From the sequence record NC_049919.1: DNA of 61,564 bases; one strand, 5' to 3'. The stretch is from Escherichia phage SH2026Stx1. Numbering within the stretch: position 1 is the stretch's first letter; every line of letters begins with the position of its first letter. Below are positions 21,001 to 24,000 of this stretch, in pieces. Made by a program: the position numbers.

Positions 21001-24000
21001 TTTGTGGAAGCGGCTAATTTAATACTCCGGTTGCTGGAGGTAGAAGCTGTTGGTTCAGAGGTTGACGAACACTGCATGTCAATGCATACATAACCTTTAT
21101 TTGAAGTTGAATTTGGAATCAAGTTTCCTCCTGAATTAATGGTTTTTCATAATACTAACTATTGATAAAAATATTTTGCATTTCATTAAAATAAAAAATC
21201 CCATGGAAAATATTTTTTGTTAGTTATTACATACAGCACATCAGGTCGTCAATATAGTCTAACTATAGTTATCACCAAAAACTTGCCTCGATTTTAGATT
21301 TTTCCAGTATTTGTAGATATTGCACTGAACACCGAATACGTAGCAGAGGGTGTCTACACGATAACGTTCTATGAGCTACCATGTTGTCGAAAAATTGTTT
21401 AGTGAGTATGACATCAGGAATGTGGTGGTCTGTTTTAATATTTCTATTTCTATTTCTATTTCTATTTCTATTTCTATTTCTATTTCTATTTCTATTTCTA
21501 TTTCTATTTCTATTTCTATTTCTATTTCTATTTCTATTTCTGTTTGTTGTGGTTTTTTCTTTAGTTCATGTATTTCGATTTGTTTCTGAATTATCGGGGG
21601 TAGTGTCTTCCCTTTTCCCTGAGGCTTATCATGCAGTTATTTTCGCCATCTTGGTATTGTGGAAATACCGACATCCATAGCTTTGGTGAGCTCTGTTCAG
21701 GTGGCCAAATTCAGAAAACCATTACGGAGGAAGAAGGCGATGGCTAAACCAGCGCGAAGACGATGTAACCGTAAAAGAGAAGATTTAACTGTTAAAAGGA
21801 TATTTGAGTTACTAAGTTTCGATAAATCTACCGGGGTATTTAGATGGAAAGTTCCCACTCAGGGAAGGATAGCATTAAATAGTGTTGCTGGAGCTTTTGA
21901 TTCCAACGGTTATTCAATGATCATGATAGATGGGCGTAGATATAAAACTCACGTCTTAGTTTTTTACATAACTCATAATCGTTGGCCTGCTGGTCAAATT
22001 GACCACGTTAATGGAATTAGGACCGACAATAGGCCAGAAAATTTAAGAGAATGCCTGCCAATAGAAAATTCAAGAAATATAAGGATCCGAAAGAATAGCA
22101 AATCAGGTTGCAGAGGGGTTACTTGGCACAAACGACAGAAAAAATGGAATGTTAGGCTAGGATTCCATGGCAAGAGTAAACACTTCGGATGCTTTGATGA
22201 TCTGGAGTTAGCGGTACTAGTTGCTGAAGAAGCCCGAGATAAGTATTACGGTGATTTTTCCGGCAACGAAAGGAGCACTTATGCGAATCTATCGAAGGAA
22301 ATGTAAATGTTGCAATGAATGGTTTATACCAAAATATCAAAATCAATATTGGTGTAATGAGATTTGTGGAACCAAGATAGCACTCGAACGACGAAGTAAA
22401 GAACGCGAAAAAGCGGAAAAGGCAGAAAAGGCAGCAGAGAAGAAACGACGACGAGAGGAGCAGAAACAGAAAGATAAACTGAAGATTCGAAAACTCGCCT
22501 TAAAGCCCCGCAGTTACTGGATTAAACAAGCCCAACAAGCCGTAAACGCCTTCATCAGAGAAAGAGACCGCGACTTACCATGTATCTCGTGCGGAACGCT
22601 CACGTCTGCTCAGTGGGATGCCGGACATTACCGGACAACTGCTGCGACACCTCAACTCCGATTTGATGAACGCAATATTCACAAGCAATGCGTGGTGTGC
22701 AACCAGCACAAAAGCGGAAATCTCGTTCCGTATCGCGTCGAACTGATTAACCGCATCGGGCAGGAAGCAGTAGACGAAATCGAATCGAACCATAACCGCC
22801 ATCGCTGGACTGTCGAAGAATGCAGGGCGATCAAGGCGAAGTATCAGCAGAAACTTAAAGACCTGCGAAACAGCAGAAGTGAGGCCGCATGACGTTCACA
22901 GTAAAAACCATTCCTGACATGCTCGTTGAGGCATATGAAAATCAGACCGAGGTAGCCAGAATACTGAACTGTAGTCGCAACACGGTCAGAAAATACACTG
23001 GCGATAAAGAAGGAAAAAGACACGCTATTGTCAACGGTGTTCTTATGGTTCATCGCGGATGGGGTAAAGATACTGATGCGTGATATCCGGCAGGTTCTTG
23101 AGTGCTGGGGGGCATGGGCGGCAAATAACCATGAGGATGTGACCTGGTCACCCATTGCCGCCGGATTTAAGGGACTGATCCCCGAAAAAGTAAAATCACG
23201 CCCGCAGTGCTGTGACGATGATGCGATGGTGATATGCGGGTGTATAGCCCGCCTTTACCGGAACAATCGCGATCTGCATGACTTGCTGGTTGATTATTAC
23301 GTGCTGGGGGGGACGTTCATGGCGCTGGCACGGAAACATGGGTGCTCTGACACCTGTATAGGTAAACGCCTTCACAAAGCGGAGGGGATTGTTGAAGGCA
23401 TGCTGATGATGCTGGGAGTGAGGCTTGAGATGGATCGGTATGTTGAGCGTGAATTGCCGGGAGGGAGAACCTCTGTATTTTATCAGCGAAAAAATAGTTT
23501 ACGATCGTAAAAATCTGCATATCATGATAAGAGTGGTTACATTGCCACGCTGCTTAACCCGCCGATGCGCGGGTTTTTTTGTACCCAGAATCCTGTGAGC
23601 TATACGGAAAGTACACAGAAAGGAAGGTGCGACCACAATTAATAACAAAATCTTAAAAATTGCACATGGCACTATTAGTTTTCTAAATATTGTGTATTTT
23701 TTGTATTGCAGGATGACCCTGTAACGAAGTTTGCGTAACAGCATTTTGCTCTACGAGTTTGCCAGCCTCCCCCAGTGGCTGGCTTTTTTATGTCCGTAAC
23801 ATCCTGTGTATCAATAAATGTTGTTGTCTACGTACGTCAAGTAGTCGCATGAGATCTGACCAGATATGTTAAGGTTGCAGCTCTCTTTGAATATAATTAT
23901 CATTTTCATTACGTTATTGTTACGTTTATCCGGTGCGCCGTAAAACGCCGTCCTTCAGGGGGTGGAGGATGTCAAGAATATAGTTATCGTATGGTGCTCA

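Follow-up and report, generated by a model that had tools for sequence, protein, structure and literature searches.

T4-like phages carry free-standing homing endonuclease genes of the seg and mob types, which are associated with intronless homing and marker exclusion (PMC2988022). Other endonuclease genes split the gene that hosts them, including mobE in nrdA of Aeromonas phage Aeh1 and mobA in gene 60 of T4 (PMC2988022), as well as the endonuclease gene that divides nrdD in FelixO1-like phages (PMC4837284). In addition, gene 31 of phage epsilon34 joins the N-terminus of an eaE-like gene, in frame, to an HNH endonuclease (PMC2629481). Here, a related arrangement is described in Escherichia phage SH2026Stx1 (NC_049919.1), in which an open reading frame (ORF) for a predicted HNH-AP2 endonuclease occupies the 5' end of ninG (rap); the whole stretch of 61,564 nucleotides (nt) that was analyzed is referred to as the window. 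A preliminary reading of this DNA without database searches (the sequence-only reading) had proposed that a free-standing homing endonuclease gene invaded ninG and brought with it a recoded, cleavage-resistant copy of its target. The comparisons presented below bear out the insertion and its linkage to a divergent ninG start, replace recoding with substitution by a diverged homologue, and make spread by homing the probable explanation for the distribution of the gene.

The ninG locus resembles the seg and mob genes in that the nuclease gene is part of neither an intron nor an intein, and in that related phages either have or lack it at one fixed position, between conserved genes or within one of them. 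In both cases the base composition is foreign, the sequence next to the gene is divergent, and spread would be expected to occur by double-strand-break repair with co-conversion of the flanks. The ninG locus differs from the T4 genes in that it is found in temperate lambdoid prophages rather than lytic T-even phages, and in that the ORF brings no initiation signals and is fused to the first 9 codons of the host gene. While T4 enzymes often cut hundreds of base pairs from their own gene, the only candidate target in the ninG case is a 64-nt segment that the insertion replaces. As with mobE, mobA and the nrdD insertion, an HNH-type gene interrupts a reading frame whose product apparently stays functional; however, two polypeptides must reassemble in those cases, whereas in ninG 9 codons are detached, a whole substitute N-terminus is supplied and a single polypeptide is predicted. 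Epsilon34, a lambdoid (P22-like) phage, is similar in that a resident gene has lost its start to an endonuclease ORF, but the gene, the operon and the HNH lineage are different, and no replacement of the 5' end has been described for its interrupted gene. The features of the ninG locus are as follows, with percentages of guanine plus cytosine (GC) where relevant:

21726-21730, plus strand: Shine-Dalgarno sequence GGAGG, 9 nt ahead of the ATG at 21740; the native ninG initiation region, which now serves the HNH ORF.
21740-21768, plus strand: native ninG start codon and the next 26 nt, now encoding residues 1-9 of the HNH protein (MAKPARRRC); 48% GC.
21740-22306, plus strand: HNH-AP2 endonuclease ORF, 188 amino acids (aa) plus stop, assigned from Pfam, PHROG, AlphaFold2 and Foldseek.
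21755-21768, plus strand: left copy of an imperfect 14-nt direct repeat, CGAAGACGATGTAA, encoding RRRC(K) of ninG.
21769-22364, plus strand: heterologous cassette of 596 nt, consisting of the HNH body and the substitute ninG 5' end, delimited against lambda and four other loci that carry the HNH gene.
21941-22060, plus strand: predicted HNH (His-Me finger) nuclease core, residues 68-107 (Pfam HNH_3), holding D88-H89 and N101-L102-R103.
22106-22252, plus strand: predicted AP2-type DNA-binding domain, residues 123-171 (Pfam AP2 match below the cut-off, plus Foldseek).
22270-22275, plus strand: Shine-Dalgarno sequence AAGGAG within the 3' end of the HNH ORF, 5 nt ahead of the NinG ATG at 22281.
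22281-22364, plus strand: substitute AT-rich ninG 5' end, 84 nt or 28 codons; GC 29%, GC at third codon positions 25%.
22281-22892, plus strand: complete ninG (rap), 203 aa, overlapping the HNH ORF by 26 nt.
22293-22306, plus strand: right copy of the direct repeat, CGAAGGAAATGTAA, encoding RRKC(K) of the restarted NinG and including the HNH stop codon.

Alignment with lambda ninG defined exact junctions at 21768/21769 and 22364/22365. To the left, ATGGCTAAACCAGCGCGAAGACGATGTAA (21740-21768, MAKPARRRC plus 2 nt) matches lambda ninG (42432-42460) at 29 of 29 positions, with identity ending abruptly at 21769; to the right, identity resumes at 22365 and extends over 51 of 51 nt. Between these points the cassette stands in place of 64 nt of lambda (42461-42524, canonical ninG codons 10-31), and the best alignment of its last 58 nt with the replaced segment yields 36 matches over 64 positions (56%). 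Since perfect runs of 29 and 51 nt flank a 596-nt foreign block, chance cannot account for the pattern. Composition changes in steps, from 48% GC at 21740-21768 to 39% in the HNH body, 29% at 22281-22364 and 50% in the remainder of ninG, with a window mean of 49%. The sequence-only reading had correctly recognized the NinG N-terminus at the head of the HNH ORF and the sudden switch that follows it, but its description of the codons for MAKPARRRC as GC-rich was overstated, as their 48% GC is close to the phage mean. It had also given the feature as 21740-22330; the start holds, while the end lies 34 nt further, at 22364.

The HNH ORF depends on ninG for its translation start. Lambda and the other aligned loci also have the GGAGG stretch where ninF meets ninG. 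The ninG ATG at 21740 is the only usable start of the HNH ORF, whose next in-frame start codon is M60. Twelve aligned HNH homologues begin 9-21 positions later and end approximately 12 residues earlier, without the residues of MAKPARRRC. In addition, the AlphaFold2 model of the HNH protein, which has a mean predicted local distance difference test score (pLDDT) of 85, is of low confidence at exactly residues 1-10 (about 60) and 171-188. Both ends of the ORF are thus borrowed, the N-terminus from ninG and the C-terminal tail from the new ninG start, which is read in another frame to a TAA inside ...AAATGTAA.

The restart of NinG at 22281, 26 nt before the end of the HNH stop codon at 22306, is as the sequence-only reading had placed it. 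The AAGGAG ahead of it is kept in all 7 metagenome loci and in each of the 52 loci that the AT-rich pattern identified in IMG/VR. Because NinG re-initiates from its own Shine-Dalgarno sequence and ATG, no splicing element is needed and the HNH gene lies outside any intron or intein. No significant RNA structure hiding either ribosome-binding site was found at the two junctions (Z 0.10 and 1.08), a result obtained without an Rfam scan. The copies of the direct repeat, CGAAGACGATGTAA and CGAAGGAAATGTAA, agree at 11 of 14 positions; a BLAST query with a hypothetical empty site aligns genomes carrying the HNH gene across this repeat, and removing 21769-22306 (538 nt) in silico leaves an in-frame ninG.

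The 28 codons of the substitute 5' end correspond to 31 codons of lambda, with 55 matches over 93 nt of lambda and 84 nt of the window. The start of ninG is therefore divergent and AT-rich, as had been noted earlier, but the approximately 31 residues attributed to it are the number of lambda codons matched. The segment retains the cysteine pattern of NinG as CX2C-X13-CX3C (CX4C-X13-CX3C in lambda), and the strong Shine-Dalgarno sequence, ATG and 28 codons supplied by the cassette still allow NinG to be encoded at full length with those cysteines in place. Consistent with this, Pfam NinG (PF05766) covers residues 4-197 of 203 (E 4e-83), and past 22365 the gene differs from lambda only by scattered substitutions and one 9-nt insertion. 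This insertion is a duplication, GCAGAAAAG at 22416-22424, which adds an AEK repeat and is missing from lambda and most other ninG alleles, whether or not they bear the cassette. The term 'recoded' does not fit the substitute segment: about half of its residues differ from those of lambda and it is 2-3 codons shorter, so that it is a diverged homologue and not a synonymous rewrite. It has the appearance of a ninG start from an AT-rich relative that has yet to be sampled, and was probably carried from that donor together with an endonuclease gene lying just upstream of ninG.

The substitute start and the HNH gene travel together. The AT-rich segment is preceded by the 3' end of the HNH gene in 57 of 57 IMG/VR loci and 7 of 7 metagenome loci; among complete Escherichia coli genomes the segment was found in 537 and the HNH gene in 538, the two being linked in about 536. 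These counts agree with the expectation of the sequence-only reading, which had named an AT-rich ninG start without the HNH gene as the observation that would count against it. Such a start was found once in 5,426 genomes, in Z1323PEC0008 (NZ_CP148289; L011, 1496-2107), where a ninG without the HNH gene carries part of the AT-rich segment. This gene is of lambda type up to codon 18 (MAKPARRRCKNDECREWF) and then continues with 39 nt of the AT-rich block, the switch point lying inside the shared GAATGGTTT. On the upstream side the order is the ordinary ninB-ninE-ninF, while over 518 nt the ninG body does not differ from common alleles that carry the HNH gene (100% identity) and the following 733 nt are 99.6-99.9% identical to loci that carry it. 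Since its body is that of cassette-bearing alleles, the chimera is best read as a recombinant derived from such an allele, and not as an older AT-rich start that never had the gene. Its origin would fit either loss of the HNH gene or a repair tract or crossover that failed to reach it by 10-20 nt. Z1323PEC0008 probably also holds a ninG copy with the HNH gene, because the junction query, to which lambda-type alleles without the cassette give no match, hits two places in this genome.

At least 80% of 21740-22400 is present in 538 of 5,426 complete E. coli genomes, with 98.9-100% identity among the matches listed, and the cassette is missing at the same site in hundreds of others; this presence or absence among homologous ninG genes, in conjunction with the exact junctions against lambda, supports the HNH gene being an insertion in ninG, as first proposed. 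The hypothetical empty-site junction query matched 563 places in 537 E. coli genomes, while the ninG 5' region of the family represented in the window matched 1,435 places in 1,043 genomes, so that the cassette occupies 563 of approximately 1,435 ninG copies of this family (about 39%). It was also found in 57 IMG/VR contigs, 7 metagenome contigs and one Salmonella genome (Salmonella Infantis), in the latter between ninF and ninG, and it is absent from the GTDB species representatives. Of 420 phage records matching the region, only that of the Shiga toxin 1 (Stx1)-converting phage AU6Stx1 (two accessions, KU977420 and NC_049921) has the cassette, and lambda is without it. The AU6Stx1 record is 100% identical to the window over 21500-22900 (1,401 nt searched) and labels the region 'HNH endonuclease', 'NinG' and 'NinH'. 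The next nearest HNH proteins are at most 47% identical and occur in unrelated phage loci, such as a T7-like contig in which the gene follows those for endonuclease I and an exonuclease; none of the distant homologues examined for context adjoins ninG.

A second intact HNH-AP2 ORF was observed inside ninF of E. coli 14EC007 (NZ_CP024131, about 1,752,607-1,753,113; L008, 2441-2947), in the same prophage as a ninG cassette. It encodes 168 aa, has 36% GC, is 37% identical to the ninG-borne HNH protein and is listed as a partial gene in RefSeq. This ORF divides ninF into N- and C-terminal pieces, with lambda homology ending at L001 position 1456 and resuming at 1461. Insertion of HNH-AP2 genes into the nin region may be a recurrent event.

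In the ninG-borne protein, Pfam HNH_3 (PF13392) matches residues 68-107 (E 4e-11; 42.7 bits, above the gathering cut-off of 24.8), and the ORF matches PHROG 99, 'HNH endonuclease', with E 7e-71. Pfam AP2 (PF00847) matches residues 123-171 below its gathering cut-off (E 2e-4; 22.1 bits against 33.3), a sequence search of the PDB gave a weak AP2 match only, and NCBIfam held no match for either the HNH protein or NinG. The predicted secondary structure of the C-terminal half (strands at 127-130, 135-142 and 145-152, helix at 155-173) and Foldseek comparisons with the GCC-box-binding domain of AtERF1 (1gcc; root-mean-square deviation (rmsd) 1.3 A over 51 columns, probability 1.00) and the AP2 domain of TEM1 (7et4; rmsd 1.1-1.2 A over 48 columns) point to an AP2 fold, a three-stranded sheet plus helix, in the modeled protein. 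Residues D88, H89, N101, L102, R103 and N110 are invariant in an alignment of 13 homologues, the codon for N110 (22067-22069) lying just past the HNH core; the catalytic roles of the His and Asn residues of the HNH motif are assigned by analogy.

The best structural match of the model in the PDB is I-HmuI (1u3e; probability 0.99, E 5e-3, TM-score 0.37, rmsd 13.7 A), the intron-encoded HNH nicking endonuclease of Bacillus phage SPO1. The poor superposition is expected for an elongated multi-domain protein, and the two share the same elongated HNH architecture; in contrast to the ninG-borne protein, which is only 15% identical to it, I-HmuI is encoded in an intron and its C-terminal DNA-binding module is not AP2. 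The order of HNH followed by AP2 is also that of HNH-AP2 endonucleases of phages, cyanobacteria and ciliates, which Magnani and colleagues reportedly proposed, in Plant Cell in 2004, as ancestors of the plant AP2/ERF domain. The subject of that work was domain evolution, unlike the present case, and to our knowledge it contains no ninG insertion or lambdoid example.

The ninG-borne HNH ORF is intact in 20 of 21 distinct haplotypes recovered, and its segregating sites (15 synonymous over approximately 120 sites, 12 non-synonymous over approximately 444 sites; ratio approximately 0.22) are consistent with purifying selection. Judged by its sequence and predicted structure, the enzyme looks competent for catalysis. 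Two decayed copies were also observed: one in IMG/VR (2526164629_000012), with a 1-nt deletion causing a frameshift at the equivalent of window position 21960, and one in an E. coli genome, with a truncated 104-aa product (P0003). They fit the usual cycle of invasion and decay of homing-type genes.

Population comparisons set the cassette apart from the gene that surrounds it. In 51 aligned loci, nucleotide diversity is 0.004 in the cassette and 0.031 in the ninG body, or about 8-fold lower in the cassette; the AT-rich ninG segment showed no polymorphism in the aligned sample, which was partly selected by an exact 34-nt match within that segment. The flanks are far from uniform, with 12 left-flank classes (300 nt) and 9 right-flank classes (400 nt) in 23 combinations in a sample of 63 loci. 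Haplotypes of the ninG body with and without the HNH gene interleave: 2 of the 24 haplotypes with the gene are identical to haplotypes without it, many others are 1-4 nt from one, and up to 15 nt separate one haplotype with the gene from another. This interleaving indicates that the cassette has been gained or lost by many ninG backgrounds, the breakpoints lying near its right edge. The cassette is a single, nearly invariant unit at one site in many different lambdoid prophages. A hitch-hiking gradient was considered as a further sign of homing, as diversity of the ninG body in cassette-bearing alleles grows with distance from the cassette, and it was rejected as evidence of co-conversion when 79 haplotypes without the HNH gene gave an equal gradient.

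We favor, with moderate confidence, the explanation that the locus holds a free-standing HNH-AP2 homing endonuclease gene that occupies the 5' end of ninG and has spread by homing. The structure of the locus, the protein family, the foreign composition, the sporadic but wide distribution at one site, the low diversity and the strict linkage to a diverged version of the neighboring ninG sequence together match the known pattern of free-standing homing. From this pattern we infer homing, cleavage of cassette-free ninG at a site within the replaced 64 nt, and immunity of the carrier. During mixed infection, or upon induction with a second lambdoid genome, the enzyme would nick or cut a cassette-free ninG in or near the replaced 64 nt, and the break would be repaired from the cassette-bearing copy through homology to the left, in ninF and the ninG start, and to the right, in the ninG body, so that the cassette is copied in. 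The carrier would be protected because its own version of the segment is only 56% identical. The donor would most likely have been an unsampled AT-rich phage with the endonuclease gene just upstream of its ninG, and a single illegitimate join at ...ATGTAA could have fused the donor block to a lambda-type start.

There are several observations that weigh against spread by homing. Ordinary or Red-mediated recombination alone could spread any cassette with conserved flanks, and the diversity gradient of the ninG body is just as strong without the cassette. Many O157:H7 genomes hold a cassette-free, lambda-type ninG in another prophage beside the cassette-bearing one; conversion has thus not occurred in the lysogen, which is expected if the nin region is repressed, yet is not positive evidence. 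In addition, the E. coli collection is heavily weighted to O157:H7, and the numbers obtained from it are counts and not natural frequencies. Lastly, the proposed donor, a phage with an AT-rich ninG, was not found. A phmmer search with the 41-aa N-terminus against 1.84 billion representative proteins matched nothing beyond itself and typical NinG starts of enterobacteria, AU6Stx1 was the sole tblastn match in the phage collection, and exact-pattern and protein scans of GTDB species genomes returned nothing relevant; no AT-rich NinG N-terminus without the HNH gene was found in the phage and protein databases searched.

The main alternative, possible if less probable, is a passive module: a single illegitimate recombination event would have brought in the HNH gene together with the divergent ninG start, and homologous (RecA or Red) recombination in the conserved flanks would since have shuffled the pair among lambdoid prophages, with the endonuclease playing no part in their spread. 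The enzyme may then be inactive on ninG or have another role, such as attacking competing phages elsewhere. Lambdoid phage genomes are highly mosaic, the flanks of the cassette recombine freely, the ninG body has the same diversity profile with and without the cassette, and cassette-free ninG copies persist beside cassette-bearing ones in the same genomes, all of which a passive module would explain. However, the ORF is intact in 20 of 21 haplotypes, with its putative catalytic residues kept and a ratio of non-synonymous to synonymous polymorphism of approximately 0.22, and the cassette is approximately 8-fold less diverse than the ninG body while present in approximately 39% of copies on many backgrounds. 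The scatter of the HNH-AP2 relatives over otherwise unrelated phage loci and the independent entry of a paralogue into neighboring ninF also weigh against a passive module.

It is quite improbable that the HNH protein is a domesticated accessory nuclease, working with NinG/Rap or in another phage process such as recombination or packaging and kept for the benefit of the phage. Its translational link to ninG, through the shared start region and the 26-nt overlap, and the apparent purifying selection on the ORF are what such a role would predict, and HNH proteins have packaging or recombination roles in some phages (PMC12315714). Nevertheless, the gene lies far from the terminase genes; lambda and most ninG copies lack it, and of the 420 matching phage records a single one has it. 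Its composition is foreign, its relatives occur in unrelated contexts, and both the N- and the C-terminus of the protein are borrowed tails with predicted disorder. The idea that the AT-rich start is the original ninG segment, mutated in place after the insertion to escape cleavage (a true recoding), draws on the cysteine pattern and the few residues kept (RR.C, EWF, NQ.WC), but is effectively excluded by sharp boundaries and length changes, with 28 of 64 positions differing right next to 51 of 51 identical nt, about half of the amino acids changed, a fall in GC to 26-29%, no intermediates among approximately 600 copies, and no polymorphism in the segment in the sample (again, partly selected by the exact 34-nt match).

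The surroundings of the cassette were also characterized. Along the plus strand, the genes around the cassette are in the order ninB, a methyltransferase gene, ninE, a 590-aa minus-strand ORF, the HNH ORF, ninG, ninH, Q, stx1A and stx1B, with stx1 1.7 kb downstream of the HNH/ninG cassette. The 590-aa ORF (19350-21122, minus strand) is AT-rich and lies between ninE and the HNH gene, at the usual lambdoid position of ninF. Its N-terminus is rich in Ser and Thr and its middle is hydrophobic; its sole match is PHROG 9230 (function unknown), with no match in Pfam or NCBIfam. A left flank with this ORF is found in about half of the sampled loci that carry the HNH gene. Between the start of the minus-strand ORF and that of the HNH ORF is a 617-nt spacer holding a near-perfect hexanucleotide array, (TATTTC) x 17.8, at 21439-21545; the length of this array could vary and thereby alter expression of the 590-aa ORF or the HNH gene. 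On the other side of ninG, NinH (22889-23080) matches its own family and, weakly, several helix-turn-helix models, including NUMOD1 (E 0.003). NUMOD1 is a DNA-binding module frequent in homing endonucleases, and the NinH match probably reflects mere generic helix-turn-helix likeness.

The HNH gene is already annotated as 'HNH endonuclease' in RefSeq in hundreds of genomes, while the architecture and population pattern of the cassette appear to be undescribed so far; our literature search found no description of an HNH gene in ninG, or of a homing endonuclease in Stx phages. Should the enzyme prove inactive, the locus would be no more than an annotated HNH endonuclease gene whose insertion history is interesting. 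If it is active, it would be a rare documented homing-type gene among temperate lambdoid prophages, including the Stx1 phages of O157:H7, O111 and related pathogens, and it would illustrate a neat route into a coding sequence that does not destroy it, whereby the start of the host gene is taken and a spare 5' end is supplied. An active enzyme would also be a source of sequence-specific breaks beside Q-stx, with relevance to the recombination of Stx phages. A more speculative and rather unlikely extension is that the cassette, as a break-maker within the junction-resolving gene of the phage, acts as a hot spot that drives exchange of ninG-Q-stx between Stx and non-Stx prophages when cells with several lambdoid prophages are induced. 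If so, it would contribute to mosaicism and to the spread of toxin-regulating regions, with NinG/Rap helping to resolve the repair intermediates, and the paralogue in ninF of 14EC007 would mark the nin region as a recurrent landing pad for such elements.

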